Shown one piece after another: positions 1,192 to 57,627 of a DNA stretch of 64,000 nucleotides. The stretch comes from an uncultured Eubacteriales bacterium (GTDB lineage Bacteria > Acidobacteriota > Aminicenantia > Aminicenantales > Saccharicenantaceae). The notes under the pieces were generated by a model, which saw only the letters and a program-made list of their open reading frames with translations, was not told the origin of the DNA and searched no databases. The DNA lies in the NCBI GenBank assembly GCA_964585685.1, contig CAZPEP010000005.1, positions 17,783 through 81,782 of the forward strand. Direction: 5' to 3'. The stretch's first letter is position 1. Every line of letters begins with the position of its first letter. A program made the position numbers and the translations under genes.

Positions 1192-2424
1192 ATGCTGAAC
1201 CTCAATCTCATCCATACTGTAGCCTTCGCGGGCATCGTCCTTTTCATCGGCTACGGCCTTTGCCGTTGGATCAGGCCTCTCTCGAGCTATAACATCCCGG
1301 CGCCCGTCGTCGGGGGGCTCATCGTCGCCCTGGCCATACTCGTCGCCCGCCGGTTCGACGTGAGCCTGTTCACTTTCGACACGACCCTGCGCGATCCGCT
1401 CATGATCGCCTTTTTCACCACGATCGGTTTCGGGGCCAGTCTCAAGCTCCTCAAGATCGGAGGTCCCCAGGTCCTCGTTTTCTTCATCATCGCGACGATC
1501 GCGGCCGTCCTCCAGAACGTCGTCGGCGTGTTGATCGCCCTTCCCTTCGGGCTTAAGCCCCTCTTCGGCGTCCTGGCCGGGTCGGTGACCCTGACCGGCG
1601 GGCCGGCGACCGGCCTCGCCTTCGCGCCGCTGTTCGAAAAAGCGGGCGTCCATGGGGCGGCAACGATCGCTGTGGCCGCCGCCATGTTCGGGATCGTCTG
1701 CGGCGGGCTGATCGGCGGTCCGATCGGGACGCTGCTGATCGACCGCCACCGGCTCCGCAAGCCCAAGACCCATCCGGGCGGCGGCCCCGCGCCGAGCGCC
1801 GACGAGATCGTGGAAGCCAAGGTCCCCGAGCCCAAGGAAGCGGCGCCTGCCGGCGAGGACCAGGAAGCCTATGTCCTGCTTAAGAACCTGGTCGTCCTCC
1901 TGGTCGCCATGTGGATCGGCTCCTGGTTGAGCAAAGGCTTCCAGGCGCTCCACTTTACCCTGCCCGCCTACATCGGGGCCATGTTCGTCGCGGCCATCAT
2001 CCGCAACCTGGATGACCTAACTCATCTGTTCGGACTCTCCCAGCGAACCATGGACGATCTCGGCCACGTCTCTCTTTCGATCTTCCTCGTCCTCGCCTTG
2101 ATGACGCTGAAACTATGGGAGCTCGCCGGTCTCGTCCTGCCCCTGATCATCGTTCTTGTCGGCCAAGCCCTGCTCCTCGTCTTTCTCTGCCTGGGCCCCG
2201 TCTTCAAGCTCATGGGACGCGATTATGAATCGGCCGTCATGAGCGGAGGCTTTTTCGGGTTCATGATGGGGACGACCGCCAACGCCATGGCCAATATGAA
2301 GGTCCTAGTCGACAAGTACGGGCGCGCGCCCCGGGCCTTTCTGGTCGTGCCCATGGTCGGGGCGTTCTTCATCGATTTCACGAACGCCCTCCTGATCACG
2401 GTCTTCCTGAATATCTTCAAGTGA
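1192..2424 (+). CDS. gltS: sodium/glutamate symporter GltS
   Basis: 410 aa. Strong colinear similarity to E. coli GltS (IPAPVVGGLIVALAILV, SLRDPLMIAFFTTIGF, LAGSVTLTGG, VVPMVGAFFIDFTNALLI). Confidence 0.85.
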   Translation: MLNLNLIHTVAFAGIVLFIGYGLCRWIRPLSSYNIPAPVVGGLIVALAILVARRFDVSLFTFDTTLRDPLMIAFFTTIGFGASLKLLKIGGPQVLVFFIIATIAAVLQNVVGVLIALPFGLKPLFGVLAGSVTLTGGPATGLAFAPLFEKAGVHGAATIAVAAAMFGIVCGGLIGGPIGTLLIDRHRLRKPKTHPGGGPAPSADEIVEAKVPEPKEAAPAGEDQEAYVLLKNLVVLLVAMWIGSWLSKGFQALHFTLPAYIGAMFVAAIIRNLDDLTHLFGLSQRTMDDLGHVSLSIFLVLALMTLKLWELAGLVLPLIIVLVGQALLLVFLCLGPVFKLMGRDYESAVMSGGFFGFMMGTTANAMANMKVLVDKYGRAPRAFLVVPMVGAFFIDFTNALLITVFLNIFK

Positions 2425-2478
2425 ACGCCGCTTGTCAAAGAACAGGGGAGAGTTACGGACCGGGGCTGGGGAGGGGAT

Positions 2479-2536
2479 TGGCTGGGAAGCAAGGATTCGG
2501 ACCTTGATTGCTTGATCCGGAGTCAAGAGTTCCCCA
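2479..2536 (-). repeat. degenerate partial copy of tRNA-Gln 3' portion (anticodon stem to CCA), likely att-site remnant
   Basis: Reverse complement reads TGGGGAACTCTTGACTCCGGATCAAGCAATCAAGGTCCGAATCCTTGCTTCCCAGCCA. It matches the 3' 56-58 nt of the full tRNA-Gln at 6449..6522 with ~3-4 mismatches. D-arm absent. AT-rich DNA follows. Confidence 0.6.
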
Positions 2537-2810
2537 TTATAACCGATATATAATCAACTAGATGCGTCTTTTGTCTTTTCTTATTGGCTAGTTTTTAGCT
2601 AGTGCCGACACAGGAACAAGGCGGGGCAGCTTCAATGCTTGAAAACCTCACTTCAGAGGTGATACATTGGGCGGGGGAGGTCAAGACCCTTTGAGAAGAT
2701 AGCAAGAAGGATCCTGGATCTAAATCTGGTGATCGCGCTTGCATCGATAGGCGCATTTTCCTGCCGGGCCCGAAGAGACTCCCGACCCTGGCTCAAAGAT
2801 CCCGCGGTCA

Positions 2811-4202
2811 TCAAACACGGCGTTGATGCTCGATGACCTTCTCCGCGGTATCCGCACCCATCCGCATCGCGATGTGCATCGTGGGATAGCCGAAGCCGCC
2901 CTGGCGTCCGACCGAAGAAAGATTCCGGAATGCGGCCAAATAATTCTTAGCCTTCTCAAAATGGAGCTCGAAGCCGAGTCGGAAAACAGGATATCCGTAC
3001 GCGGACCGAAGGAGATGGCACTCGGCGATTTCATCTCGACGGATAAGCCCCTCGGCTTCGAGATCGTCCAGGATCCGTTGACGTGTCGCTGTGCCGCCGT
3101 TCCACCTGTCGTCCCCCTCGTCGCAGGTCATCTCGACGACCAGGACGCTGTGGTCCGGCGGGTGCACGTCCAGCCCGCTGTTTTTCGGCTCGGCGATACG
3201 ATGGAAGATCCTGTCCCGGAAGTAGATGAATGGGACATCGAAGACCCTGGACTTGCGGACGAGCAGGCCGTACACGGCGATGGGCTTGTAACGGAGGTGG
3301 TCGCACGCTTCCAGAATGTCGTGCGGAGGGGTCGGGGCCATGGATCGGATGAGCTCCGGGAGCGGAATGGTCGAGATACAGTGCGCGCAGGGGAATGGCC
3401 TGGTCACGCCGTTTCGCTCGACCTGCACCGCCGTCACCAGGCCGTCCTCGGTTTCGATGCCGGTCGCCGTGCTGTCCAGGATGACCGCGCCCCCGTGCCT
3501 GCGAATATGCTCCGCCAACGCAAGCGGCAATTCCCGCGAACCCGTCGGTGTGTACCAGACAGTCTCATGCCTGAGTGCGCTCGCCGCAGCGTCGTCGCCG
3601 GCCCTGATCCCGACCGCGTCCAGAGCCTTCTTGACGACATCGACGGCCCCGAGGCGCGGCATCCGCGTGCGCACGAACGTCGCGGAAAGATCGCTCGGAG
3701 GGATCCCCCAGTACGCCTGCGTAAAGCCGCAGAAGAAATGCTCGTAAAGGGGACGCCCGTAGAGCCGGATGAGCGCATCTTCGGCATTCCGCGCCGGCTC
3801 CCGAGCGAATTTGTTGCGGACCGTCTGCGCTATCAAGCCCCCGAGCAACGCGGCGAGCGTCCCGAGCGGGACGCTTTTCAACAGATCGAGAAACTCCAAC
3901 GGGTATCTCCGGCGGCCGTTGCCGAAGCGGATGAAGGCCCTCAACGCGGCCGGGCGAAGACGGTCGCCCATGAGAGCCTTCATATCCTCGAAGATCTCGC
4001 GGTCGAAGGCGTGCAGATGATGGGCGCCGAGATCGTAAAAATTTCCGTTGAACTCCCGGCCGGCGGCGAGGCCGCCCGGGGCCGGGCCCTTTTCGAAAAC
4101 GGTCACGGGCACGCCCTGTTCGGCAAGGACGCGGGCGGCGTAGAGACCGCACATCCCCCCGCCGAGGACGAGGACCTTCGGGCCTCCAGACGCGGATTTC
4201 AA
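2811..4202 (-). CDS. FAD-dependent oxidoreductase (amine oxidase / protoporphyrinogen-oxidase-like fold)
   Basis: 463 aa. N-terminal dinucleotide-binding motif VLVLGGGMCGLYAARVLAEQG...FEKGPAPGG. Start codon overlaps stop of upstream gene by 4 bp (coupled). Confidence 0.65.
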   Translation of the reverse strand: MKSASGGPKVLVLGGGMCGLYAARVLAEQGVPVTVFEKGPAPGGLAAGREFNGNFYDLGAHHLHAFDREIFEDMKALMGDRLRPAALRAFIRFGNGRRRYPLEFLDLLKSVPLGTLAALLGGLIAQTVRNKFAREPARNAEDALIRLYGRPLYEHFFCGFTQAYWGIPPSDLSATFVRTRMPRLGAVDVVKKALDAVGIRAGDDAAASALRHETVWYTPTGSRELPLALAEHIRRHGGAVILDSTATGIETEDGLVTAVQVERNGVTRPFPCAHCISTIPLPELIRSMAPTPPHDILEACDHLRYKPIAVYGLLVRKSRVFDVPFIYFRDRIFHRIAEPKNSGLDVHPPDHSVLVVEMTCDEGDDRWNGGTATRQRILDDLEAEGLIRRDEIAECHLLRSAYGYPVFRLGFELHFEKAKNYLAAFRNLSSVGRQGGFGYPTMHIAMRMGADTAEKVIEHQRRV

Positions 4203-5602
4203 TGCGGCCGTTCCCCGACAGCCGACAGGACCCGTTCCTGGCGCGCGAATGTCCGCGACAGGAAGGTATCGGGAAGGATGACATCGTCGCGAAGGAGCGC
4301 CTTGTCCTTCGGCACGCTGCGTTTCAGGCGGGGGAGGATGCCGTCCTCGCCTTCCAGGAGCGCGATCGGCACCATGCCCTTTAGGTCGGCCGGGCCGGCA
4401 AGCTCCAGGAGTCCGTAGAAAAGATCGCCGCCGATGCCGTGCGGAACGGATTCGCCCTTCTTCACGGCGCGCTTCGCGTAAGCATAAACGTCCGTCAAGC
4501 GGCCTTGTCGCGGCCAGAGCACGGGACTCCGGTCCAGCACGGCGCGCGCGATCGCCGAGGGAGTTTCCAGGTGACAGAGATGGAACGGCCGATAGAAGAG
4601 ATAGAAGGGGCCGTTGCCCATCTTGTAATACTTGAGATAAGACGCCTGAACGGGGTCGTCGCAGGAACCGACGACGAAAACCCCGCCCCCCGGCTCCGCG
4701 CCGAGAATGTAATCGACAACCCCCGTAGCTCCGTACTTGCGGAAGTCAAAAAGGCTGAAGACGTCGTTGACATTCTTGGCCTCGGGCCCCTCCATCCCAG
4801 GAGCCCAGGGAACCAGCCCCGTGCCGTTTGCGATGAGCCCCATCTCGATGTTGAGTTTCGTGCCGTCTGTATAGGCGCAGCACTGGACGGGGTCCAGGTT
4901 CCGGATCCGCGCCTCGTGCTCGAGGGAATCCGCGGTCGCGTAACGGTTCAGGAAGCCCTTGATGTTGCCGGCCATGACGATGCGGAAGGACCACAGCCGG
5001 ATCTCGTCGATCATCCGTGCCAGGACACCGTGCTGGTCGCCGGCGTCGCTCGTCGCGACGACCCCGTTGCGGACCGCCGTGTCGTGGAGGACGGAGCCCA
5101 GGGCCAGGTCCACTTCCGCGTTCATGAGGATGACGTGGATCTTCCTTTCCAGGGCCTCCAGGCAGAGTCTCCCCGCAAACCCGATCGTGCTCGTGGCTTC
5201 GACGACGACGTCCACGCCGAGCCCGTGGTCCTTGTCCAGCAGGAAGAAGGGATCGCGGGTAACGATGACCTCCCCGTTCTTTGGCATGGGATCGGACGCG
5301 GAGACGACGGCGTACGGCTTTCCGTAGGCCCGGACGGCCCGGAGGGCCGCGTCGAGACGGGTATCCGTCACCGAGACAAGTTCCATGGCCGGCGTCTGCC
5401 CAATCTGCCAGCTGATCCCGACACCCATGGCGCCGGCGCCGACCAGCGCCACGCGGATCCGCTGTCCTGACCTCTGGTACTGGATCAGCCTGTCGTAATA
5501 CACAAATAATTCCTTTTCTGCGCCGGGAGTATATCTTCGGCACCGCGGCCTGTCAATGAACCGGTTCGGGACCGGATTCCGGTCAAGAACGGGCCCTTTC
5601 AT
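4199..5602 (-). CDS. NAD(P)-binding oxidoreductase, homoserine-dehydrogenase-like N-terminal domain plus SAF-like C-terminal region
   Basis: 467 aa. Rossmann motif RVALVGAGAMGVG. Overall resemblance to COG4091-type predicted homoserine dehydrogenase/SAF domain proteins. 4-bp overlap with downstream oxidoreductase gene. Confidence 0.55.
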   Translation of the reverse strand: MKGPVLDRNPVPNRFIDRPRCRRYTPGAEKELFVYYDRLIQYQRSGQRIRVALVGAGAMGVGISWQIGQTPAMELVSVTDTRLDAALRAVRAYGKPYAVVSASDPMPKNGEVIVTRDPFFLLDKDHGLGVDVVVEATSTIGFAGRLCLEALERKIHVILMNAEVDLALGSVLHDTAVRNGVVATSDAGDQHGVLARMIDEIRLWSFRIVMAGNIKGFLNRYATADSLEHEARIRNLDPVQCCAYTDGTKLNIEMGLIANGTGLVPWAPGMEGPEAKNVNDVFSLFDFRKYGATGVVDYILGAEPGGGVFVVGSCDDPVQASYLKYYKMGNGPFYLFYRPFHLCHLETPSAIARAVLDRSPVLWPRQGRLTDVYAYAKRAVKKGESVPHGIGGDLFYGLLELAGPADLKGMVPIALLEGEDGILPRLKRSVPKDKALLRDDVILPDTFLSRTFARQERVLSAVGERPH

Positions 5603-5762
5603 GCATAAAAGCTATCTCCACGGCTTCCCGGTCGGCATCGGGAAGGCAACGACGGAATTTCCATACGAAGTCGGGATGGTAACTCCTGGCTTGTTTTGCT
5701 CAGGAGCTTAAGCTTTGGCGCGAAGGGAAGCGACGATGCGCCGCACGGAGCGGGGAGAGATT

Positions 5763-6023
5763 CTATAGGCCGATCAGATAGATGATCGCGAAAACCAAGG
5801 CCATGACATAGGATCCGACGCAAGGATAATACAGGGGCCCGACCTTTCCTGTCTCTTTCCGGGTCAACTGTTGATACTGACCGATGTCCTTGAAGAGATA
5901 CAGCCTGAGCAGGGCGAAATTGGTTTTGACCCCTCGCTTGGAGACCTCGTGGATGATCATCATGGAAAAGACGATCCCCAGGCCCACCGACACGAATGCT
6001 AAGATCAGGGCCGCATTGACCAT
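5763..6023 (-). CDS. small membrane protein (2 predicted TM helices), hypothetical
   Basis: 86 aa, two hydrophobic helices, lower GC than flanks. Weak call. Confidence 0.3.
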   Translation of the reverse strand: MVNAALILAFVSVGLGIVFSMMIIHEVSKRGVKTNFALLRLYLFKDIGQYQQLTRKETGKVGPLYYPCVGSYVMALVFAIIYLIGL

Positions 6024-6166
6024 TTATTCCTCCCTATCATCATCTCCCCTAAATAAAAAGGATATCCAGACCATGGCCGGGTGTCAAGAACTCGAGATCG
6101 GAAGGGCTGGGAGGCCGGCGGGCGGATCGTCGTGCTGGGGATTAAGCTCTTAGAGAGCGGAAAGCG

Positions 6167-6237
6167 TGGCGTGCCTGAAAGGATTCGAACCTCCGACCTT
6201 TGGATCCGGGGTCCAACGCTTGCCCAGTTAGAGGCGC
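6167..6237 (-). pseudogene. degenerate tRNA-Arg(CCG)-like sequence (tRNA remnant / att-core fragment)
   Basis: RC: GCGCCTC-TA-ACTGGGCAAGCG-TTGGA-CCCCGGA-TCCAA-AGGTC-GGAGG-TTCGAAT-CCTTT-CAGGCAC-G-CCA. Good anticodon arm (anticodon CCG), T-arm with TTCGAAT loop, U8-A9 and encoded CCA. D-arm region is ~4-6 nt too short, the acceptor has 2 mismatches and position 33 is C. A related 3' fragment recurs at 57807..57840. Confidence 0.35.
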
Positions 6238-6448
6238 ATCGTTGCAATCAACTTCAATACGGATTCTTAATCGACGATCTGTGGGTCAAATAGGCCTGAA
6301 AAAGGTTGGCTATTTTTTGGCTCGTTGAAAACTAAAAAAGGGCTTAAAACGACCGAAAATTACTTAATCAAATCGAACCGCGATAAGACCTTTAGGCGAT
6401 TATTAACAAATCGTAAATGCAGGAGAATAAAGAATTCAGATTTAGGAT

Positions 6449-6522
6449 TGGCTGGGAAGCAAGGATTCGAACCTTGATTACTTGATCCAGAGTCAAGAGT
6501 CCTGCCGTTGGACGACTTCCCA
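6449..6522 (-). tRNA. tRNA-Gln (anticodon CUG)
   Basis: RC: TGGGAAG-TC-GTCC-AACGGCA-GGAC-T-CTTGA-CTCTGGA-TCAAG-TAAT-CAAGG-TTCGAAT-CCTTG-CTTCCCA-G-CCA. U1:A72 pair and ...CCCAGCCA 3' end as in bacterial tRNA-Gln. 74 nt, CCA encoded. Confidence 0.8.
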
Positions 6523-6594
6523 GCAAGGACCTCGCTATCATAATCAAAATCGCGGCGGATTTCAATATGTTTCCCCGAGAGGAGTTCCCCTAAC

Positions 6595-6650
6595 AAATAT
6601 GGATCGAAGAGCGCCGGTTAGACCGGCGATGGATTTTGCAGCTCGGGGAG
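6595..6650. other. conserved ~55-nt element, copy A (candidate small RNA / regulatory hairpin)
   Basis: AAATATGGATCGAAGAGCGCCGGTTAGACCGGCGATGGATTTTGCAGCTCGGGGA. A second copy lies at 25622..25677 with a compensatory C:G to T:A change at the base of the GCCGGT-NNN-ACCGGC hairpin. Confidence 0.4.
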
Positions 6651-6810
6651 CTTCGTCAGTCCCTGGGTCTGACTATAGAGAAACTGTCCGATGCCGTCGC
6701 CCAGCGGCGGCCTTCCGGAACCCGTCGGGCCGATAAGAAACAAAGCTTCGACGGGGGGCGGGCTCGCCGCGATCTTTCTTGTTCCGGTTTCCTCTGCCCG
6801 ATCGATTTCC

Positions 6811-9800
6811 TTACTTCTCCCAACTTCTTTTATAAACCGGATATGTCGGTTTCTTGTGCTTGGGCATCGGATTCTTGGCCAGCAGGTCGAGAGCGACCTG
6901 GATCGCTTTTTCAAGCTGGGGATCTTGACCGGCCTTGACGGCCGCCGGGTCCATTTCGACCATGACGTCCGGATCGACGCCGTGGTTTTCGACATCCCAC
7001 GTGCCGTTAGGGTTCCAGAATCCGATTTGGGGGGCGCCAATTGACCCGCCGTCCATGAGCGGGGCCGCGTTGTTCCTCCCGACAAGCCCGCCCCAGGTTC
7101 TTGTCCCCACGAGGGGCCCTACCCCCGCCGCCCTGAACAGCCAGGGCATCATGTCCCCGCCCGACCCGGCATACTCGTTGATGATCATTACCTTGGGACC
7201 ATAAATGGAACCCACCGGCGTGACGTATTCGGCCCCGTTCCGGGAGGCAAAATAGCCCATCAACGGCCTACGCATGTAATCGATGATGTAATCGGCGATA
7301 AATCCGCCCTGATTGAAGCGCTCATCGATGATCGCTCCCTCTTTCCCGACCTGGGCGAAATAGTACCGGTTGAAGCTCGAGAAGCCATCCTCGGCCGTGT
7401 CGGGAATCCAGATGTAAGCCAGCCGGCCGCCACTCAGGGCGTCGACCTTTCTCCGGTTGTCCTCGATCCAGGCCAGGTTCCTCAACCGATATTCATCGGC
7501 CACCGGAATGACGGTCACTTCGCGTGCCCCCTTGCCGTCAGGATTGGGGCCTACCTTCAGCGTGACCTGCTTGCCGTCCGTCGCTACGAAGTATTTATAG
7601 ACTTCCTCGGTCGCTGGGATGTCCTTTCCGTTCGCGGCCAGCAGATATTCTCCCGGGACCACGTTGACGCCGGGCTGAGTCAGCGGCGCCCTGAGGTCCG
7701 GGTTCCAATTCTCGCCGTTGTAAACCCGGGCAAACCGATAACGGCCGTTTTCGATCGTGTAATCCGCGCCGAGCAAACCCACCCTGACCGGCAGAACCTC
7801 GGGCTGGTCCCCTCCCCCAACAAACACGTGCCCGCAGGTCAATTCCCCGAGCAAGTCTTCGAAGAGATAATTCAGGTCCTGACGGCAGACCACCGAGGCC
7901 AGGAACGGCTCGTAACGTTTTTCAAGGGCCGCCAGGTTGAGGCCGTGAAGGCCGGCGTCATAGAAGAAATCGCGCTCGAGCCTCAGGGCTTCATGGAACA
8001 TCTGTCTCCATTCGACCGGGGGATCAACAAAGACGTTCATCTCGGCTGTCCGCAGCGTTCCTTTGCCCGGTTCGACCGGTCCCGCCGTCGCGGCGATCGC
8101 CCAGGACGGACCCTGATTGTAAAGAATTTTCTCCCCCGTGGCGGATATGACGAAACCATCGACGTTCTCCAGGAACTTGTCGATCTTCCGCGCGGCGAGA
8201 TCGAACTTATGGAGCGTTTGGCCTCCGCCGGCGGCCGACCCAATGGCCCCTGGGACCAGTAGGCCTTCGAGAAGAAAGAGGACCCCTTCTTTTCCCGTCG
8301 AGAGGGCCAGATAGTTTTTGACGGGGACCGGGAGAGCGAGAATCCGCTGGCTGATCCCTTCGAAATCGATCACAGTTTTTTCGGCTGCCTTGGCCTTGTC
8401 CTTTTCCTCGGCGGACTTATCGGCATCCTTTATTCCCGAGCCCTTCTTCGCATCCTTGGCCTCGGCTTTTTCCGGCTCCTTGGGCTTTTCTTCGTCGCTC
8501 TCGGGCGCGAGGGGCGACGGCAGGTCCTTGCGAAGGACGGCGATGTACGCGCTTCGGCTCACCGGACGAACCAGCTTGGACATATCGAGCCAACCGGGGG
8601 TAAAGCCGACGTCGGTGCTGGCCGTAAAAAAGAGGTATTTCCCGCTTTTATCGAAGGCCGGGAACCTGGCGTCGCTGAGACCGTCGGTGATCTGGCTCGC
8701 TTTCCCCGTTTCCAGGGAATAGGCGAAAATGGCGTTCATACGGCTCGGAAGCTGTTTGGCGTACGTCAGCCACCGGCTGTCGGGCGACCAGCCGAAATTG
8801 AACGAGAGAGCCGGACTGAAATAATACGTCGTGTCGACCTTAACGGGAATTCCTTGATCGATGTCCACGTACCAGAGATTCAAGCGTTTGTCGCTGTAGG
8901 CGATCTTCTTCCCGTCGGGAGACCAGTCCAGCCGGAAGAAGAACGACGGCGGATCGCCAAGCCCGATCTTCTTTGCGGGGCCCTTTCCGGCCTGGTCGAT
9001 GATGTGGAGAGCGTATTCGCCGGATTCGTCCGAGAAATAGGCAACCGATTTACCGTCGGGGGACCAGGCCGGGCTGCGCTCCACGGCTCCCGTAGTCCGC
9101 GTCAGATTCCGGATGTCGCCTTTTTCAGCCGGGACTGTCAGAATTTCGCCGCGGGTCTCGAACACGGCCCGGGCGCCGTTCGGCGAGATGTCCGCCGCGG
9201 AAATCCGGCTCCCGACTTGGACGAAATGGGGCCGGACCTCCGGGAAATCCCCGTCAAGAGAGACATCGATCGATCGGGCTTTTGCCGAGGATATATCGAA
9301 AAACAAAAGCCCTCCGAGCTGTTCGATGATGATTCCGCCGGGCCCGGCCGATGCCGATTTGAAATCGAAGCCGTCGTTTCCTAAAGCCTCCTTGACCGTT
9401 TTCGTCGCCGTGTCATAGACGAAAAGGGAGACAGGACCCTTGCGGTCGGACAGGAAATAGACTTTGTCCCCGATCCACATGGGGTTCGAATCGTTGGAAT
9501 TTTCGCGGGGGACTTTCTCGACCTTGAGGTCGGATAAGCCGATGATCCAGATCGGCCATGTTTGTCCGCCCTGATAGCGTTTCCAAGCCTTCTGGAACTG
9601 GAAGATCGGAACATAGGCCAGCCGCTTGCCGTCGGGAGAATAGGAACCCTCGGAGGCCGTCGGCAAGGGGATCTCCTCGGGGAATCCCCCGGAGACGGGC
9701 ACCGAGGATAAACGCGGCACGAAAGAGAAGTTGTTGCGGGACGAAAGGAAGAGAATTCGTTTGCCGTCGGGAGACCACCCGACGACGCTGTCGTTCTCCG

Positions 9801-10149
9801 GGTGATGGGTCAGGCGGCTCGGAATTCCTCCGGCCGCCGGAACCGTATATATATCGGTGTTCCCCTCGTATTGCCCGGAAAACGCGATCAGGGCGCCGTC
9901 CGGGGAAAAAACCGGATCGCTTTCGATCCCGATTCCGGTCGTCAGTCGAGACGCCGTGCCTCCCTCGCGTCCAGTGATCCACAGGTCCCCGGCGAAGGCG
10001 AAGACGATCTTCGCGACGCTGATTGAGGGATGCTGCAGGAGCATGGGCTTTTTTATTTGAGCATGCACCGTTCCCGCCAGGCAGATCATGAAAGCGGCCG
10101 CAACCGCGCTTTTAGGACGGATAAGCATGGAGAATCTCCTCATTAACAT
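6811..10149 (-). CDS. tricorn protease homolog (beta-propeller/PDZ/S41 peptidase), secreted
   Basis: 1112 aa with signal peptide. Repeated WSPDGK beta-propeller motifs (TolB-like), central PDZ and C-terminal S41-type peptidase region. Length and order as in tricorn protease. Confidence 0.8.
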   Translation of the reverse strand: MLMRRFSMLIRPKSAVAAAFMICLAGTVHAQIKKPMLLQHPSISVAKIVFAFAGDLWITGREGGTASRLTTGIGIESDPVFSPDGALIAFSGQYEGNTDIYTVPAAGGIPSRLTHHPENDSVVGWSPDGKRILFLSSRNNFSFVPRLSSVPVSGGFPEEIPLPTASEGSYSPDGKRLAYVPIFQFQKAWKRYQGGQTWPIWIIGLSDLKVEKVPRENSNDSNPMWIGDKVYFLSDRKGPVSLFVYDTATKTVKEALGNDGFDFKSASAGPGGIIIEQLGGLLFFDISSAKARSIDVSLDGDFPEVRPHFVQVGSRISAADISPNGARAVFETRGEILTVPAEKGDIRNLTRTTGAVERSPAWSPDGKSVAYFSDESGEYALHIIDQAGKGPAKKIGLGDPPSFFFRLDWSPDGKKIAYSDKRLNLWYVDIDQGIPVKVDTTYYFSPALSFNFGWSPDSRWLTYAKQLPSRMNAIFAYSLETGKASQITDGLSDARFPAFDKSGKYLFFTASTDVGFTPGWLDMSKLVRPVSRSAYIAVLRKDLPSPLAPESDEEKPKEPEKAEAKDAKKGSGIKDADKSAEEKDKAKAAEKTVIDFEGISQRILALPVPVKNYLALSTGKEGVLFLLEGLLVPGAIGSAAGGGQTLHKFDLAARKIDKFLENVDGFVISATGEKILYNQGPSWAIAATAGPVEPGKGTLRTAEMNVFVDPPVEWRQMFHEALRLERDFFYDAGLHGLNLAALEKRYEPFLASVVCRQDLNYLFEDLLGELTCGHVFVGGGDQPEVLPVRVGLLGADYTIENGRYRFARVYNGENWNPDLRAPLTQPGVNVVPGEYLLAANGKDIPATEEVYKYFVATDGKQVTLKVGPNPDGKGAREVTVIPVADEYRLRNLAWIEDNRRKVDALSGGRLAYIWIPDTAEDGFSSFNRYYFAQVGKEGAIIDERFNQGGFIADYIIDYMRRPLMGYFASRNGAEYVTPVGSIYGPKVMIINEYAGSGGDMMPWLFRAAGVGPLVGTRTWGGLVGRNNAAPLMDGGSIGAPQIGFWNPNGTWDVENHGVDPDVMVEMDPAAVKAGQDPQLEKAIQVALDLLAKNPMPKHKKPTYPVYKRSWEK

Positions 10150-10249
10150 AGAATTTTAGATATATAATCCATGCCCGAGCGGATGTCAACTGGTTGGGAA
10201 ACTCCGGAGCGGGGGCGCCGATGAGTTGGGTGCGCGTGCGGCGCTCTGG

Positions 10250-23430: not shown

Positions 23431-23706
23431 GGCCCGTCCATCATCGAGCTAAAATAATTATATCATATCAGCGGTGTCCAGTTACAAGTTGAACAAAGAT
23501 AAGGGCAGTTTCTTCTTGATAACCGCGCCGAGCGCGTAAGCTGTGATGGCCACCCGGACTTATGTCCTCACCGCGTTCTCCGACGTCCCATAAAACGACT
23601 TGATCCGCTTCGTTAACTGGACACTGCTGGTATCATATTGTGTCTCTTTTGGCCCGGGAATAGGATGCGGTGCTTCGGGAGCGTAGAAGCTTTGGGGAAA
23701 TTATTC

Positions 23707-23742
23707 TTGACAATAAGCTCCGCGTTAATGATAATATCATTA
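23707..23742 (+). promoter_or_regulatory. sigma70-like promoter (TTGACA-17-GATAAT) overlapped by 17-bp palindromic operator TAATGATAATATCATTA
   Basis: TTGACA at 23707-23712, GATAAT at 23730-23735, perfect palindrome 23726-23742. It lies between the divergent GntR gene and the secreted esterase-like gene. A flanking 11-bp inverted repeat GTGTCCAGTTA / TAACTGGACAC sits at ~23473 and ~23616. Confidence 0.4.
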
Positions 23743-23855
23743 TATGATTATGCAGTGATGCCCGGTTGCATGTTGAATAAAAATAGTTTGTTTCCGGTAT
23801 CGGCCATCGATTAATAATGGGGTAAAATCCGATTTCGGCCCGGGAGGTTCAAACG

Positions 23856-25604
23856 ATGAAACAATTCCGTAAATCCGTCCATCATGCGATCATTTCGGCC
23901 CTGGCGGCGGTTTTCTTCGCCGGATTGCCCGTATTCGCCGCCCCCGGACTCAAGTTCGGTGTCGGCTTTCCCTCCGAAAGATCCAGGACTCCTCTCGATG
24001 GCCGAGTGCTCCTCCTGATTTCGACCGACGGCAAGGAAGAGCCTCGTTTCCAGATCAGCGAACTCCTCGATACGCAGCTCGTATTCGGAATCGACGTGGA
24101 GGGCCTGGCTCCCGGAGCTGAAGCGGTCGTCGATACTTCAGCCTACGGCTTTCCCCTCCGCAGTCTGGCCGAGCTTCCCCGCGGCGAGTACTTCGTCCAG
24201 GCGCTTCTCCATCGGTACGAAACATTTCATCGGGCCGACGGCCATGTCGTCAAACTCCCCATGGACCGCGGCGAAGGCCAGCTCTGGAACCTCGCGCCCG
24301 GGAACCTCTTCAGCGCGCCGCAGAAAATGTTCCTCGATCCGGCCGAAGACAAGACCATCCGGATCGCCCTGGATAAAGAGATTCCGCCTATCGATCCGCC
24401 CAAGGACACGAAGTACGTCCGGCACGAGAAGATCCGGAGCCAGCTCCTGACCAAGTTCTGGGGCCGTCCCATGGAACTCGGTGCGTGCCTTCTTCTTCCG
24501 GAAGGATTCGACGAGCACCCGGAAGCCCGGTATCCCCTCATGGTTTTCCATGGCCATTTCCCCAGGACGGTTTCCTCCTTCCGGGAAACGCCGCCCGACC
24601 CCAACCTCCCTCCCGACGATTACGACCCGTTCTGGGGGATGTCGGGGTACAACCGGGTTGAGCAGCAGTATTCTTACGAGTTTTTCAAGGAATGGACCGG
24701 CCCCAATTTCCCGCGCGTGATCGTCCTGGAAATCCAGCACGCGAACCCGTATTATGACGATTCCTATGCGGTCAATTCCGCCAACGTCGGCCCCTACGGG
24801 GACGCCATCGTTCGCGAGCTCATCCCCTATATCGAAAAAAAGTACAGGGGGATCGGCCAGGGATGGGCCAGGTTTCTCTATGGAGGATCGACCGGCGGCT
24901 GGGAAGCGGCTGCTGCCCAGATTTTTTATCCGGACGAATTCAACGGATGCTACGCGGCATGTCCCGACTCATTAGACTTCCGGGCATACCAGCTCGTCAA
25001 TATTTATGGGCAGAAAAACGCCTATGTCATGGACAGTCAATGGAAAAAGACGGCCCTGCCCGGCTTCCGGGATTACCTCGGCCAGGTCTCGGCGACTATC
25101 CAGGAGATGAACCAACTGGAGCTGGCTATCGGGACGCATTCCCGCTCCGGGGGGCAATGGGATATCTGGCAGGCGGTGTACGGACCGGTCGGGCCGGACG
25201 GCTACCCAGCCCCGATCTGGGACAAGGTCACGGGGCAGATCGACCCCAAGGTCGCCGAATACTGGAAAGAAAACTACGACCTGAGGCACATCCTCGAGCG
25301 GGACTGGAAAACCCTGGGGCCGAAGCTTCGAGGGAAGATCAACATCTATGTCGGGGACATGGACACCTTTTATCTCAACAACGCGGTCTACCTGACGGAA
25401 GCGTTTCTTAAGAACGCCAAAGATCCCGCGTTCGAAGGGGAGATCGATTACGGTGACCGGGCAGAGCATTGTTGGAACGGTGACCACAATCGTCCCAACG
25501 CCATCGCTTGTCTTCGTTTTCACCAGATGTACATCCCCAAGGCCGTCAAGCGGATGGAAAAAACGGCCCCCCCCGGCGCCGACCTCAAAACCTGGAGATA
25601 TTGA
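23856..25604 (+). CDS. secreted alpha/beta-hydrolase-fold protein, putative esterase
   Basis: 582 aa. Signal peptide (ALAAVFFAGLPVFAAPG). Esterase-like segment LYGGSTGGWEAAAAQIFYPDEFNGCYAACPD. Confidence 0.45.
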   Translation: MKQFRKSVHHAIISALAAVFFAGLPVFAAPGLKFGVGFPSERSRTPLDGRVLLLISTDGKEEPRFQISELLDTQLVFGIDVEGLAPGAEAVVDTSAYGFPLRSLAELPRGEYFVQALLHRYETFHRADGHVVKLPMDRGEGQLWNLAPGNLFSAPQKMFLDPAEDKTIRIALDKEIPPIDPPKDTKYVRHEKIRSQLLTKFWGRPMELGACLLLPEGFDEHPEARYPLMVFHGHFPRTVSSFRETPPDPNLPPDDYDPFWGMSGYNRVEQQYSYEFFKEWTGPNFPRVIVLEIQHANPYYDDSYAVNSANVGPYGDAIVRELIPYIEKKYRGIGQGWARFLYGGSTGGWEAAAAQIFYPDEFNGCYAACPDSLDFRAYQLVNIYGQKNAYVMDSQWKKTALPGFRDYLGQVSATIQEMNQLELAIGTHSRSGGQWDIWQAVYGPVGPDGYPAPIWDKVTGQIDPKVAEYWKENYDLRHILERDWKTLGPKLRGKINIYVGDMDTFYLNNAVYLTEAFLKNAKDPAFEGEIDYGDRAEHCWNGDHNRPNAIACLRFHQMYIPKAVKRMEKTAPPGADLKTWRY

Positions 25605-25621
25605 TCAGGAGTCCCCCCAAT

Positions 25622-25677
25622 AAATTATGGATCGAAGAGTGCCGGTTGGACCGGCAATGGGTTTTGCAGACCCGGGT
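25622..25677. other. conserved ~55-nt element, copy B (paired with 6595..6650)
   Basis: AAATTATGGATCGAAGAGTGCCGGTTGGACCGGCAATGGGTTTTGCAGACCCGGGTA. Intergenic, between esterase-like gene and UPF0104 gene. Confidence 0.4.
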
Positions 25678-25864
25678 ACACGGCGGCAAAGTTGACGGCG
25701 GCCGTCACCGGCACCATCAGGGCTTGAAGCCGGTGATAAGGTCAGGCCGCGGATGTCTTCCAGCCGAGTTTATCGGGGAAAGGTCTGGTTTCCCAGAGCC
25801 CTGAGAAGGCGATCCTGCGGGAGCCTAGCCTGGCCGGGCAGAATATGGTAATATCGCGTTCTCG

Positions 25865-26893
25865 ATGAAAAAGCACGGGATCAAGCTGGCCGCTGTCACG
25901 CTCCTGAGCCTGGTGTTCCTCTTCCTGTTCTTCCGGAAGGTCGACTGGGGGCAATTCCTCCGCTACACGACGAGCGCGAACCCCCTCTTCTTCGCCCTCA
26001 TCATCCTTCTCGCCCCTATGCACCTGGCTACTCGGGCGCTTCGCTGGCATGTCCTCCTCAAGTACCAGAAGAAGGGGGTCCGCTTCGCCAGCACGTTTTC
26101 GGCGAACGCCGTAGGATTCACCGTCTCCAGCATATTCCCCGGTCGGATCGGGGAGATCGTCAAACCCCTGTACCTGGCCCGCAAGGAGGGCCTTGGGCCA
26201 GGCTTCTGCCTGGGGACTGTGGTCGTTGAGCGCATCTTCGACATCTTCGTCATGTGCGCCCTCCTGGGCATTTTCCTCATGGCGAAGCCCCTGTACGCGT
26301 CAGCCTTCAGCCTCAGCCCCGAGACGCTGGGCCGGCTGGTCTTCTGGGGACGGATCGGCGTCCTCTTCGCCCTGGCCATCCTCCTGGCCTGTCTCTGCCT
26401 CTACTTCTTCAAGGATGCGACCATGCGTGTCCTGGGGTTCCTTCTGAGGCCCTTCCCGGTGCGCTTCTCCGCCCGGGCCCTCGAGCTTGCCCGCGAGTTC
26501 ATCGACGGCCTGACCTTCTTTCGGTCCGTCGGGGACCTCCTCCTCTACACGGCCCTATCCTTCGTCGTCTGGCTCGGCATCGTCTTTTATTACTGGGTCC
26601 TGTTCTTTGCCTACCGCCAGCCGCAGCCCTTCTTTGTCCTCATTCCTTACGTCTTCCTGACCATGGTCGGGGCGTCCATCCCCACGCCCGGCATGATCGG
26701 GGGGTTTGACTTCTTCAGCCAGCTCGGCATGATGTCCCTCTATGGCCTCGACCGCGACCTGGCCACGGGCATGACGCTCGTCATGCATGCCGTCCAGATC
26801 GGGATGACTTGCCTCGTCGGTTATGCTATATTATGGAAAGAAGGGCTGTCCCTGGTCCAGTTGAAGAGGATGGGGAAGGCCGAAAACCTATGA
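25865..26893 (+). CDS. UPF0104 / lysylphosphatidylglycerol-synthase-TM-region-like (flippase-like) membrane protein
   Basis: 342 aa, ~8 TM helices. Conserved N-terminal pattern FFRKVDW...[17 protein letters not shown]...[26 protein letters not shown] typical of this family. Confidence 0.6.
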
Positions 26894-27345
26894 GATGCCC
26901 GTTCTGCGGTTTCCTCGAGAGCAAAGTCATCGATTCCCGGGAAAGCAAGAAGGGCCTCTCGATCCGACGGCGCCGGGAATGCCTCTCCTGCAAGCGCCGC
27001 TTCACGACCTACGAGAAGATCGAGGAGATCCCCTACATGGTCGTGAAGAAGGACGGCAGTCGCCAGCCCTTTGACAGCCAGAAGCTCCTGCGCGGGATGA
27101 TGAAGTCCTGCGAGAAGCGGCCCATCCAGATCAGCCAGCTCGAAGAGATCGTCGAGGAGATCGAGACGATGCTCCAGGAGCGGCCGGACAAGGAGATCGA
27201 AGCCTCCGAGATCGGGCAGATCGTCATGGACCGGCTTAAGGCCCTGGACAAGGTCGCCTACGTCCGCTTCGCTTCCGTCTATAGGGACTTCAAGGACGTC
27301 GTCGAATTCAAGCACGTCCTGGAGAATCTCCTGAAGGAAAAGTAG
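26890..27345 (+). CDS. nrdR: transcriptional repressor NrdR
   Basis: [18 protein letters not shown]...[16 protein letters not shown] zinc ribbon plus ATP-cone. ATGA start/stop overlap with upstream gene. Confidence 0.85.
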
Positions 27346-27358
27346 GCCCCGACCCGCC

Positions 27359-27811
27359 ATGGTTCGCCGGATCCGCCTCGTCTCGCGAGTCCTCAGGATC
27401 GAAACGGAGGTCCGGAGCTCCGGCGGCGTGGGCTTCGGCCGCGAGGCAGAGCTACCCGGCCTCGACAGGGTCTGGGCCCCGTCGGTGGACGTCTACGAGA
27501 ACGAGAACGAGGTCGTCGTCGAGGTGGAGCTTCCGGGCGTCCTCAAAGAGGACGTCGCGATCGTGCTCCGCGGCGGGCGGATCGAGGTCAAGGGGCTGAA
27601 GAAGGTCCTCCCGGCGGCTGAGGCCGGGGCCCGCTACCATCGCCTCGAGCGGGAATACGGAACGTTCCGGAGGGTGGTCATCATTCCGGCCTCCGTCCTC
27701 GCCGAGCGGGCCTCGGCGTCGCTGGAGAACGGCATCCTGACCGTCCTCCTACGGAAGCCCCCCCGCCGGACCCGGAGGGTCGAAGTCCGGAACGCCGGGA
27801 CCAAGAAATGA
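27359..27811 (+). CDS. Hsp20/alpha-crystallin family small heat-shock protein
   Basis: VDVYENENEVVVEVELPGVLKEDVAIVL...LENGILTVLLRK alpha-crystallin domain signature. Exact start uncertain. Confidence 0.8.
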   Translation: MVRRIRLVSRVLRIETEVRSSGGVGFGREAELPGLDRVWAPSVDVYENENEVVVEVELPGVLKEDVAIVLRGGRIEVKGLKKVLPAAEAGARYHRLEREYGTFRRVVIIPASVLAERASASLENGILTVLLRKPPRRTRRVEVRNAGTKK

Positions 27812-27829
27812 ACCTGGAGGATCGACGCC

Positions 27830-30352
27830 ATGGCGAATATAGATGAAAAGTCCGACGATCCGCTTGAAGAGCTGATCGAGGAACAGAACCAGAAGCTCCA
27901 CATCCCCGGCAAGCTCCCCGTGCTCCTGCTTCGGGACGTCGTGATCTTCCCCTACATGATCGCCCCGCTCTTCGTCGGGCGCGAGAAGTCCAAGGCCGCC
28001 ATCGACCAGAGCCTGGCCGGCAACCGCATGGTCCTCCTCCTGACCCAGAAGGACATGAGCGTCGAGGATCCCAAACGTGAGGAAGTGTATGAAATGGGCA
28101 CGGTCGCCCTGGTCATGCGGATGTTGAAGCTCCCCGATGGCCGGGTCCGCATCCTGGCCCAGGGCCTGATCCGAGCGCGGATCGAGAGCTACGAGGAGGA
28201 AGGACCTTACGTCATGGCCGGCATCTCCGTCGTCCACGAGCCCGACAAGCCCGACAAGTCCGAGAAGACGATCGAAGGCGAGGCCCTCATACGCAACGTC
28301 CGCTCCGGCCTGGAGAAGGCCACCTCGCTCGGCAAGAGCATCCCTCCCGAGGTCCTCATCATTGCCGCCAACATCGACGAGCCGGGCCGGCTGGCCGATC
28401 TGACGGCCAGCAACCTCGAGCTCAAGGTTGAGGAGGCCCAGGAGGCCCTGGAGATCGTCGACCCCCTCCAGCGTCTCAAGAGGGTCTACGAGCACCTGGC
28501 CCGCGAACTTGAGCTCCTCGATGTCCAGACGAAGATCTCGACCGAGGCCAAGGGCGAGATGGACAAGCTCCAGAAGCAGTACTTCCTCCGACAGCAGATG
28601 AAGGCCATCCAGAAGGAGCTCGGCGAGGGGACAGAGATCCAGGAGGAGATCAAGGGCTACCAGGACCGGCTGAAGGGGTTCAAGGTCCCCGACGAGGTCC
28701 GTGAGGAGCTCGAGAAGCAGATCGTCCGTCTGGCCCAGATGCACCCCGAGTCGGCCGAGACGTCGGTCGTCCGCAACTACCTCGACTGGATGTTCTCCCT
28801 GCCCTGGAACAAGACGACCGTCGACAACCTCGACCTCGTCAAGGCCCGCGAGATCCTCGACGAGGACCACTACGGCCTGGGCAAGGTCAAGGAGCGCATC
28901 CTTGAGTACCTCGGCGTCCGCAAGCTCTCCAAGCGGATCAAGGGCCCCATCCTCTGCTTCGTCGGCCCGCCCGGCGTCGGCAAGACCTCACTCGGCAAAT
29001 CCATCGCCAGGGCGCTCGGCCGGAGCTTCATCCGCATCTCGCTCGGCGGCGTCCGGGACGAGGCCGAGGTCCGGGGCCACCGGCGGACGTACGTCGGGGC
29101 CATGCCCGGCCGCATCATCCAGGGCATCCGCCGGGCCGGCTCGAACAATCCCGTGTTCATGATGGACGAGGTCGACAAGATCGGGGCCGATTTCCGGGGG
29201 GACCCGTCCTCGGCCCTCCTCGAGGTCCTCGACCCCGAGCAGAACAACTCCTTCCGCGACCACTACCTCGGCGTGCCCTACGACCTGTCCAAGGTCATGT
29301 TCATCACGACGGCCAACCTCCTCGACCCCATCCAGCCCGCCTTCCGCGACCGGATGGAGGTCCTGGAGCTCCCCGGCTACACCGAAGAGGAGAAACTCGA
29401 GATCGCCAAAAAGCACCTCATCCCTAAGCAGGTCTCCGAAAACGCCCTGAGCGAAAAGCTCATCGAGATCACCGACGGGGCGGTCAAGAAGATCACCTCG
29501 CTCTACACCCGGGAGGCCGGCGTCCGTAACCTGGAGCGCGAGATCGCCTCCGTCTGCCGGAAGGTGGCCCGCAAGGTCGCCGAGGGGCGAAAGACCCTGA
29601 CCCGGATCACGTCCCAGAACGTCGAATCCCTCCTCGGCCCGCCCAAGATCTTCAAGGACCAGCTCCTCCGCAAGGACCAGGTCGGGGTCGCCACCGGCCT
29701 CGCCTGGACCGAAGCCGGCGGCGAGATCCTCTTCGTCGAGTCGATGAAGATGCAGGGGAAGGGGAACCTCTCCCTCACGGGCTCTCTAGGCGACGTCATG
29801 AAGGAATCCGCCCAGGCCGCACTAAGCTACACCCGGGCTCACGCCCGGCAGTTCGGCATCGACAACCGCCTCTTCCAGCAGAACGACTTCCACATCCACA
29901 TCCCTGAGGGCGCCATCCCCAAGGACGGACCGTCGGCCGGCGTCACTATCGCCACGGCCTTCATCTCCCTGTGCACCAACGTCAAGGTCCGCTGGGACGT
30001 GGCCATGACCGGCGAGATCACCCTCCGGGGCAATGTCCTCCCCGTCGGCGGGATCAAGGAGAAGGTCCTGGCGGCCCAGCGCATGGGCATCAAGCGGATG
30101 ATCATGCCCCTGCCGAATAAGAAGGACCTCTTCGACATTCCCAAGAAGGTCCTCAAGACGATGGAATTCATTTATGTCGAGGACGTCAAAGAGGTCCTCG
30201 CCCACGCCCTGGTCGGCAAGGCCTATAAAGGGCGAGACAAAGCTGAGACAAAGGCGAGAGAAGGGCGAGATAAGGGCAAGAGAAAGGCGAAACGGAACCG
30301 AAAGAAAAGCGAGAGAACGGCGCGACATAGGCGAGAAAGGCGCGCCTCGTAG
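27830..30352 (+). CDS. lon: ATP-dependent Lon protease (with unusual ~45-aa basic low-complexity C-terminal tail)
   Basis: 840 aa. LON N-domain, AAA+ module (GPPGVGKTS, Walker B DEVDK), proteolytic domain PKDGPSAGVT...TGEITLRG. Tail KAYKGRDKAETKAREGRDKGKRKAKRNRKK... Confidence 0.9.
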   Translation: MANIDEKSDDPLEELIEEQNQKLHIPGKLPVLLLRDVVIFPYMIAPLFVGREKSKAAIDQSLAGNRMVLLLTQKDMSVEDPKREEVYEMGTVALVMRMLKLPDGRVRILAQGLIRARIESYEEEGPYVMAGISVVHEPDKPDKSEKTIEGEALIRNVRSGLEKATSLGKSIPPEVLIIAANIDEPGRLADLTASNLELKVEEAQEALEIVDPLQRLKRVYEHLARELELLDVQTKISTEAKGEMDKLQKQYFLRQQMKAIQKELGEGTEIQEEIKGYQDRLKGFKVPDEVREELEKQIVRLAQMHPESAETSVVRNYLDWMFSLPWNKTTVDNLDLVKAREILDEDHYGLGKVKERILEYLGVRKLSKRIKGPILCFVGPPGVGKTSLGKSIARALGRSFIRISLGGVRDEAEVRGHRRTYVGAMPGRIIQGIRRAGSNNPVFMMDEVDKIGADFRGDPSSALLEVLDPEQNNSFRDHYLGVPYDLSKVMFITTANLLDPIQPAFRDRMEVLELPGYTEEEKLEIAKKHLIPKQVSENALSEKLIEITDGAVKKITSLYTREAGVRNLEREIASVCRKVARKVAEGRKTLTRITSQNVESLLGPPKIFKDQLLRKDQVGVATGLAWTEAGGEILFVESMKMQGKGNLSLTGSLGDVMKESAQAALSYTRAHARQFGIDNRLFQQNDFHIHIPEGAIPKDGPSAGVTIATAFISLCTNVKVRWDVAMTGEITLRGNVLPVGGIKEKVLAAQRMGIKRMIMPLPNKKDLFDIPKKVLKTMEFIYVEDVKEVLAHALVGKAYKGRDKAETKAREGRDKGKRKAKRNRKKSERTARHRRERRAS

Positions 30353-31470: not shown

Positions 31471-31860
31471 CCGCCCCTTGCCCGATAAATCCCCCCGTGC
31501 CCCCCTTTTCCAAAGGGGGGTAATCAGTGAAGATTCCCTATAGTTCGCCATATGTTACGCCATAATGCGCCCCTGCTAGTATGCCCTGCTGAGACGCCCC
31601 TGTTGGTATGCCCCTTGCCCGATAAATCCCCCCCGTGCCCCCCTTTTCCAAAGGGGCGTAATCAGTTTTCCAAGGGGGGGGTAATCGTGGACGTTTTCCC
31701 GACGGGAAGGAATGGAAGGCGATACGGAATAACTCCCCCCTTTACTAAACCGAGATTGGGAGGAGAATTACGTACTCCCTCTATAACCGGGAATCGGGGG
31801 GATTTAGTGCCCCCCTTTACAAAAGGGGGGATTGGGGGGATTTATGCGAGTGATCTTTAT
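31471..31860. repeat. MITE-like composite of G/C-run hairpin repeats with inverted termini (GATAAATCCCCCC...CCCCCCTTTT-CCA-AAAGGGGGG)
   Basis: Direct repeats CCCCTTGCCCGATAAATCCCCCCGTGCCCCCCTTTTCCAAAGGGG.GTAATCAG at 31471-31527 and 31611-31668. Inverted partner GGGGGATTTAGTGCCCCCCTTTACAAAAGGGGGGATTGGGGGGATTTATGCG at 31796-31849. Intergenic between thiL and dapF. Confidence 0.6.
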
Positions 31861-39560: not shown

Positions 39561-39587
39561 TCTCCTCGCACTCTCATTATAGCAAAA

Positions 39588-39960
39588 TCCATGCCAAGAA
39601 ATCCCCCCGATCCCCCCTTTACCAAAGGGGGGAGATCTAGCCCTGGCCCCCTTTACCAAAGGGGGGAACTGACTCTGTACCCCCATTTAACACGGGGGAA
39701 CGGACCCTGCCTCCGTCCTTTCCAAAGGGGAGAACTGACTCTGCACCCCCATAAAACATGGGGGAACGGACCCTGCATCCGTCCTTTCCAAAGGGGAGAA
39801 CTGACTCTGTACCCCCATTTAACACGGGGGAACGGACCCTGCATCCGTCCTTTCCAAAGGGGGGAACTGACTCTGCACCCCCATAAAACATGGGGGAACG
39901 GATCTTACCCCCCTTTATTAAAAGGGGGGCAAGGGGGGATTTAGGTGTCCTCGATATGGG
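39588..39960. repeat. tandem array of ~63-66-bp units (4 copies, two alternating variants) flanked by MITE-like termini of the G/C-run hairpin family
   Basis: Units CCAAAGGGGRGAACTGACTCTGYACCCCCATWWAACAYGGGGGAACGGACCCTGCMTCCGTCCTTT starting near 39652, 39718, 39784 and 39846. Each unit carries CCCCC-N9-GGGGG hairpins. Termini AAATCCCCCCGATCCCCCCTTTACCAAAGGGGGG (39591) and GGGGGATTTAGG (39948) mirror those at 31483 and 31843. Confidence 0.7.
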
Positions 39961-40120
39961 ACGAGTGACATGATTTGGCTACGCAGCTCAATAGCCACGG
40001 CTATAAGGCGCGGAAGGGCCCAAAGGGCCGCAGCTACGAGGCAACAACGAGGCCCCCCTTTGGAAAAGGGAGGTTGGGGGGATTTCCGTAAAGTGCGAGG
40101 CCGGCCCATGCTGGCGGTAG

Positions 40121-46092: not shown

Positions 46093-46165
46093 GCCAGCGT
46101 AGCTCAGTCGGTAGAGCGGCTGATTCGTAATCAGCAGGTCGGAGGTTCGATCCCTCTCGCTGGCT
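46093..46165 (+). tRNA. tRNA-Thr (anticodon CGU)
   Basis: GCCAGCG-TA-GCTC-AGTCGGTA-GAGC-G-GCTGA-TTCGTAA-TCAGC-AGGTC-GGAGG-TTCGATC-CCTCT-CGCTGGC-T. No encoded CCA. The 3' 48 nt recur three times downstream (att copies). Confidence 0.8.
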
Positions 46166-46349
46166 CTCCCATATTCCCCCCATATAGCCCTCCGGAATCA
46201 ATCATTTAGGCCGGAGGCGTGTCCGCGTTGTCGTTCCCGTCAACTCCATCGGATTCCGCTATTTTCCAGTATCTTTTGGCAAAAATTTGGTCATCGGAAT
46301 TCGCTTGCTCTTTTCGGACTACGCGATAAGATATAAACAGGATCATAAT

Positions 46350-57564: not shown

Positions 57565-57577
57565 ACATGAGGCCCTT

Positions 57578-57627
57578 GCGATTCGTAATCAGCAGGTCGG
57601 AGGTTCGATCCCTCTCGCTGGCTCCAT
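57578..57627 (+). repeat. att copy 1: direct repeat of tRNA-Thr 3' 48 nt with encoded CCA
   Basis: GATTCGTAATCAGCAGGTCGGAGGTTCGATCCCTCTCGCTGGCTCCA is identical to tRNA positions 28-72. It is followed by TCAAAACTCCCCATATGAAGCGCCAGAATCA, related to sequence after the tRNA gene and after copy 3. Confidence 0.7.

Follow-up and report, generated by a model that had tools for sequence, protein, structure and literature searches.

Two copies of a short hairpin-bearing repeat in a 64,000-nucleotide stretch of bacterial DNA (the window, by which we mean the whole stretch analysed) are, very probably, dead remnants of an IS4-family DDE insertion sequence (IS), both from its right (3′) end and both oriented so that the transposase is encoded by the minus strand of the window. 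Read on that strand, both copies carry the C terminus of a DDE transposase (…LQNPLPVQPALFDP and a stop codon), followed by the terminal inverted repeat …GGGGRASTCCTG.

The repeat motif has the form ATGGATCGAAGAG-[7-bp stem, 3-nt loop]-ATGGRTTTTGCAG and lies on the plus strand at positions 6599–6641 and 25627–25669, which are the only two sites in the window that match a degenerate 43-nt pattern of it. As none of 100 dinucleotide shuffles matched this pattern, the repeat is real and not a product of chance, and a search of the window with nhmmer and a two-copy profile returned no third copy. A previous sequence-only reading had described such a two-copy repeat and given its stems as CGCCGGT/ACCGGCG (copy 1) and TGCCGGT/ACCGGCA (copy 2), both of which we confirm. 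It had put the length of the repeat at about 55 nt, which is too short: blastn alignments against full elements extend the copies to 6580–6709 and 25606–25767, and the similarity between the two begins upstream at AGGAGTYCCCC (positions 6580 and 25607).

We identified homologues by scanning JGI metagenomes, where three of eight matches were true homologues (L002, L003 and L004) and five were due to chance; an exact-pattern scan of species-representative genomes yielded one chance match inside a GspE-like gene and nothing else. In L002–L004 the sequence to the left of AGGAG is unrelated and that to the right is similar for more than 200 nt, which places a sharp element boundary at AGGAG. A common minus-strand peptide runs through these homologues and both window copies, in which it reads LQNP(L/S)PV(Q/stop)PALFDP, so that the earlier claim of a non-coding element, made from open reading frames that differ between the copies, does not hold for the minus strand. 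In L003 the minus-strand translation ends in …YHRLQALMVLVTAAAYFAAVYLGLRMKLRVLSGHVLRASKRVFGIHDFRLYALADGIRQFPYSQTQGLTKLLELQNPLPVQPALFDP and a stop. Differences between L002 and L003 fall 13, 7 and 2 times on codon positions 3, 1 and 2 of this frame, and the last 15 codons of copy 2 differ from those of L003 by five changes, all of them synonymous (5/5) and at third positions, a substitution pattern that supports coding in the minus-strand frame. Used as a query against proteins, the L003 translation gave 89 matches, most of them with PF01609 (DDE_Tnp_1).

Other readings of the coding potential were considered and rejected. An XRE-type helix-turn-helix gene on the plus strand (TTG-CAG-…ELRQSLGL) has no plus-strand open reading frame that continues in L003 or L004; in L002–L004 a stop interrupts the upstream part of this frame, with which the bias across codon positions also disagrees. 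The end of a TnpB/omega-RNA or IS200/IS605 element, considered because the coding 3′ end overlaps the hairpin, was dropped given that the homologues belong to DDE_Tnp_1, and the resemblance of TGGATCGAAGAGYGC to a sigma-54 promoter was set aside in view of the coding explanation.

Copy 1 (6580–6709, minus strand) comprises the right terminal inverted repeat and the last ~35 transposase codons, as seen by blastn, tblastn and translation. It aligns to right-end positions 2–130 of the IS (82.6% to L017 in blastn) and to residues 143–177 of the transposase fragment P0012 (tblastn E value 1e-10). Its frame has decayed: the hairpin loop contains a TAA stop, the original stop codon has become TAT, and the minus-strand translation reads …GDGIGQFLYSQTQGLTKLPELQNPSPV, a stop, and PALFDPY. 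Copy 2 (25606–25767, minus strand) joins the right terminal inverted repeat and the last 15 codons to IS positions 212–310: in blastn it aligns to IS positions 1–64 (25606–25669) and 212–310 (25668–25767), and thus keeps ~160 bp around a 147-bp internal deletion, with the transposase body and left end missing. The match to P0012 covers residues 91–120 (tblastn E value 1e-6), and the minus-strand translation ends in …YHRLQALMVPVTAAVNFAAVYPGLQNPLPVQPALFDP and a stop, or, given in pieces, in …YHRLQALMVPVTAAVNFAAVYPGL–QNPLPVQPALFDP and a stop. The right inverted repeat of copy 1 is AGGAGTTCCCCTAACAAAT (6580–6598, plus strand, outer tip at 6580), which matches both the left and right inverted repeats of L010 and 11 other right ends; that of copy 2 is CAGGAGTCCCCCCAATAAATT (25606–25626, plus strand, outer tip at 25606).

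Neither window copy combines the two inverted repeats, transposase gene and target duplication of an intact IS, and there is no intact copy of this IS anywhere in the 64-kb window. Matches resembling the inverted repeat number 18 in the window, against 18.1 expected, so that no second repeat stands out beyond chance; tblastn detects no further piece of the transposase there, and no target duplication is present at either copy. Both copies are one-ended, decayed relics, since they align to the right end only and are accompanied by neither a second inverted repeat nor any other fragment of the transposase. Each has lost the remainder of the ~1.45-kb element, catalytic domain and left inverted repeat included, and the relics are predicted to be incapable of transposition and to encode nothing functional.

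The parent element is probably of the IS4 type and uncatalogued, judging from sequences of its relatives. Homologous transposases (P0012, P0002, P0035 and P0051) carry the complete Y(2)R(3)E(6)K motif, YITRWRIEDVIRFVK. A 419-aa reconstructed transposase, which is a chimera of the three database fragments P0035, P0054 and P0012, scores 34.4 bits on Pfam DDE_Tnp_1 (cut-off 23), and in the same chimera the D-D and D-E spacings of 83–86 and 123 residues fall within the D(60-110)D(100-150)E range. This range and the other hallmarks of the IS4 family (IS4, IS231 and the IS10/IS50 subgroups) are those given by De Palmenaer et al. 2008 (PMC2266710), and the parent IS resembles the family in its D(83-86)D(123)E spacing, its complete Y(2)R(3)E(6)K motif, a DDE_Tnp_1 score above cut-off, its length of ~1.45 kb, its 5′-CA termini and a target duplication of 8–10 bp, or about one helix turn. 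The termini read CAGGA...TCCTG, in keeping with the 5′-CA ends of IS4 elements, and the inverted repeats read CAGGASTTCCCCC…. The L010 element (~1453 bp) is bounded by inverted repeats CAGGACTTCCCCCA… and flanked by a 10-bp duplication of its target, GAGGCTTCTC, in line with the ~10-bp target duplication of the IS4 family, and the target duplication of L043 is TCAAATTC (8 bp). IS4-family elements have one unbroken transposase reading frame; in every copy examined here it is frameshifted or truncated, as in L010 (158 + 177 aa) and the L037-type copies (326 + 88 aa).

There are differences from the IS4 family as well: only truncated right ends occur in the window, a TTGAC motif lies at a fixed distance from one end, and against every NCBIfam IS4 equivalog model the score falls well short of the cut-off. 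The best NCBIfam matches of the chimera are nonetheless to IS4-family models, the top one being transpos_IS4_3 with 57 bits against a cut-off of 160, and it is because of these low scores that we regard the parent as a probably uncatalogued subgroup.

Both relics lie between genes whose order differs from that in close relatives. Copy 1 is flanked on one side by a tRNA-Gln(CUG) gene (6449–6522, minus strand) with a sigma-70-type promoter, TTGAAA-17-TATGAT (6537–6565, minus strand), and on the opposite side by the 3′ end of a gene for a 1112-aa tricorn-type protease (6811–10149, minus strand). Copy 2 starts 2 nt past the stop codon of a gene for a 582-aa protein (23856–25604, plus strand) and is followed by a gene for a 342-aa membrane protein (from 25865, plus strand). 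In L026 and L027, which are ~92% identical to the window at the nucleotide level, the tRNA-Gln gene directly adjoins the 342-aa gene (L026 1237–1334 and 1477–4029 correspond to window 6445–6542 and 25841–28402). In L036 (~91%), the tricorn gene follows the 582-aa gene after 49 nt (L036 288–2243 corresponds to window 23654–25610, 2243–5643 to 10172–6781 reversed, and 5818–6237 to 14217–13798, also reversed). As these neighbour pairs are split in the window, both relics are located at gene-order breaks, and the breakpoints relative to L026, L027 and L036 are at 6542/6781, 10172, 14217, 25610 and 25841.

Rearrangements would thus have parted the tRNA-Gln gene and its 342-aa neighbour, and likewise the 582-aa and tricorn protease genes. 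A single inversion of the 19-kb block between the relics does not fit the orientation of the tricorn gene, and a composite transposon spanning this block was rejected as there is no trace of an IS at 10173; the rearrangement history at the relics is complex. With their homology, reading frame, inverted repeat, truncation and location at synteny breakpoints established, the relics would be remnants of IS copies that took part in the rearrangements, or that decayed after them. In this they resemble solo IS ends and other remnants found at rearrangement junctions, being one-ended, truncated, non-coding in appearance, intergenic and placed at breaks in gene order, and they differ from solo ends only in the internal deletion of copy 2 and in the perfect palindrome that both have kept.

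Several further features of these loci and of the window deserve mention. A promoter-like TTGACA-17-TATATA upstream of the tricorn gene (10173–10200, minus strand) straddles a synteny breakpoint, its -35 element lying in newly joined DNA and its -10 element in the conserved upstream region. At the site that the IS relic occupies in the window, L026 (1362–1476) and likewise L027 have an inserted near-perfect palindrome of ~115 nt, GGGGGGTCAGGTCTTAACATTTAAC…GTTAAATGTTAAGACCTGACCCCC, which directly abuts the -35 region of the promoter of tRNA-Gln. At a distance of 3.9 kb from the full tRNA-Gln gene, 56 nt of its 3′ part recur (95%; 2475–2530 versus 6445–6500), an arrangement reminiscent of a duplicated att site flanking a small island; between the two, at 6170–6237, there is a borderline tRNA-like Rfam match (29.6 bits, cut-off 29). 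The intact tRNA-Thr(CGU) gene is followed downstream by three extra copies of its 3′ half (gene and copies together at 46093–46166, 57546–57627, 61116–61197 and 63360–63441), which suggests tandem integrated elements or their remnants. The window also contains tandem arrays at 61435–62517 (~219-nt units, 5 copies) and 39587–39982 (66-nt units), and scattered CCCCCTTTACCAAAGGGGG palindromic repeats at 31473–31844 and 39585–40086.

The hairpin itself is a perfect 7-bp stem with a 3-nt loop, at 6612–6628 in copy 1 (-11.1 kcal/mol on either strand; minus-strand codons S-P-V-stop-P-A) and at 25640–25656 in copy 2 (-10.3 kcal/mol; L-P-V-Q-P-A). On the coding strand the stem-loop is TTG CCG GTC CAA CCG GCA, or L-P-V-Q-P-A. 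In this lineage the hairpin very probably arises incidentally from the codons (L)TTG (P)CCG (V)GTC (Q)CAA (P)CCG (A)GCN, and is not a selected RNA structure. The main ground for reading it as a structured small RNA or a cis-regulatory hairpin whose fold is conserved was that the stem is intact in both copies despite a C:G versus U:A difference at its outermost pair. That difference is literally present. The double compensatory substitution read into it is absent: in the nearest outgroups (L002, L003 and L017) this position is C·A, and each copy has changed by a separate single step, copy 2 to U-A through the synonymous GCG>GCA and copy 1 to C-G through TTG>TCG, its reading frame having already been interrupted by the stop in the loop. 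We aligned 12 independent right ends, counted the seven stem pairs and compared them with 500 column shuffles, and found no covariation in the stem across these ends (77.4% of cells paired versus 77.2% in shuffles, with 291 of 500 shuffles as high; covariation score 0.277 versus 0.274). The outermost pair, that said to be compensatory, is unpaired in six of the 12, and L010, L012, L022, L023 and L025 have practically no stem. In favour of a structured RNA, L002–L004 keep the stem by G·U pairs that are valid on the plus strand only; against it, the substitutions fit coding on the opposite strand. Searches of Rfam 15 at gathering scores found tRNAs only and no family that matches the repeat; even at E ≤ 10 no relevant family appeared, copy 1 having only far sub-threshold matches over the element (MIR5291 and sroD) and copy 2 none. 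Regional folds at both loci are no more stable than shuffles (z from -1.0 to +0.45), and an additional outer stem around the element, CCCCGAG/CUCGGGG, was rejected as it occurs in copy 1 only, is absent from copy 2 and folds no better than shuffles. A structured RNA is thus a very improbable explanation, and one already largely refuted: pairing is broken in the additional homologues, the outcome that the sequence-only reading had itself named as telling against a conserved structure. Among the origins which that reading had proposed, a mobile micro-repeat pointed in the right direction, because the sequence derives from a mobile element; what fell was the idea of a non-coding element whose conserved structure was demonstrated by a compensatory change.

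Two further possibilities concern what the relics may do now. Their perfected, GC-rich palindromes might have been co-opted as intrinsic terminators or insulators, which would add to the relic explanation. We consider this unlikely on the sequence evidence. In such a scheme copy 2 would act on the plus strand, behind the 582-aa gene, and copy 1 on the minus strand, behind the tricorn gene and ahead of the tRNA-Gln promoter. In L036 the 582-aa gene and the tricorn gene are neighbours that run in the same direction, and once separated each would need a 3′ end of its own; stems are strong in the two window copies only (0 to -5.9 kcal/mol in ten relatives), and the outermost pair was closed independently in each. 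That the two relics gained their seventh pair through different single changes, giving a perfect stem that their relatives lack, might point to some selection on the hairpin once the elements had decayed. A simple scan calls both hairpins terminator-like, on the plus strand only (7-bp stem, tail ATGGRTTTTG), but the U tract is poor (AUGGRUUUUG on the plus strand and CUCUUCGAUCC on the minus strand), terminator-like counts are near shuffle expectation (2 versus 1.0 and 1 versus 0.6), and the whole-region folds show no excess stability. The GCCGGT/ACCGGC core shared by the stems is accounted for by synonymous CCA>CCG changes in a genome of 59% GC. As a secondary possibility, the perfected palindromes of both relics may now be terminators at rearrangement junctions.

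There is even less to suggest that the copies are miniature elements (MITEs) of the IS family that can still be moved in trans, which we hold to be highly unlikely. Two-ended internal-deletion derivatives of the IS do exist in L017 (2138–2905, 768 bp) and L023 (2329–3269, 941 bp), a fusion open reading frame of N- and C-terminal transposase pieces (P0040) is found on seven contigs, and together these are MITE-like, non-autonomous forms of the parent IS family, which the internal deletion of copy 2 resembles. The window copies are short, repeated, hairpin-containing and intergenic, as are MITEs and REP/BIME-type repeats. They differ from both in their lack of a second inverted repeat or target duplication, in numbering only two and in their clear homology to a transposase reading frame, and they are unequal in length and content.

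The IS whose right ends survive as these relics appears to have a target preference. We assembled 22 distinct right-end flanks from two subfamilies, 13 of window-type loci and nine of P0071-type (L037–L046), drawing on L002–L004, L010–L012, L017, L022–L025, L037–L046 and window 6537–6579. In 16 of the 22 insertion sites TTGAC lies 11–16 nt beyond the right tip of the IS (…TCCT), compared with a background of 0.65% in this offset range (binomial P≈8e-31), and 21 of the 22 flanks have TTG at that offset. The orientation of TTGAC relative to the IS is always the same, and no mirror-image motif occurs at the left end. As the target duplications of L010 (10 bp) and L043 (8 bp) lie within the 11–13 nt between tip and TTGAC, the motif would be target DNA ~3 bp beyond the staggered cut. 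Many sites have a TAnAAT-like hexamer 17 nt after TTGAC and several are inside genes, and because of the latter the preference may be for the sequence itself and not for active promoters. Copy 1 follows the rule, as the tRNA-Gln promoter has its TTGAAA 14 nt from the tip; copy 2 is the single exception. In L025 (3105–3128), a 12-nt IS tip, GGGGGAAGTCCT, is tandemly duplicated right before GTTGACA and may mark insertion into the tip of an older copy.

These flanking sequences suggest -35-box-directed insertion. We tentatively propose, as something short of the probable, that this IS lineage homes to the upstream edge of sigma-70 promoters, placing its right end 11–13 bp upstream of a -35-like TTGAC in the same orientation, and that copy 1 records one such event. 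Site-directed insertion sequences include IS1397 and ISKpn1, which insert into REP. An IS1202 subclass is reported to insert next to XerCD sites (bioRxiv 10.1101/2022.12.17.520857), and IS5 is reported to insert upstream of silent operons (PMC11894529). Like these, the parent IS inserts in a specific orientation next to a short conserved host motif; unlike them, its motif is TTGAC(A/G), the sigma-70 -35 consensus, ~3 bp beyond the staggered cut. We found in the literature no description of promoter-directed insertion by IS4-type elements or of TTGAC targeting, and the word ‘promoter’ is absent from the accessible text of PMC2266710.

In itself the finding matters little. It removes a false candidate non-coding RNA and illustrates that a palindrome inside a reading frame can mimic a compensatory base-pair change when just two copies are compared, and the relics are useful for genome annotation in that they mark rearrangement junctions that split gene neighbourhoods kept in close relatives. 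If confirmed, the target preference of the parent IS would show in simple form that a DDE transposase can choose its targets close to promoters and in one orientation; the preference for TTGAC could explain how the element avoids gene disruption, and might offer a handle for targeted insertion.
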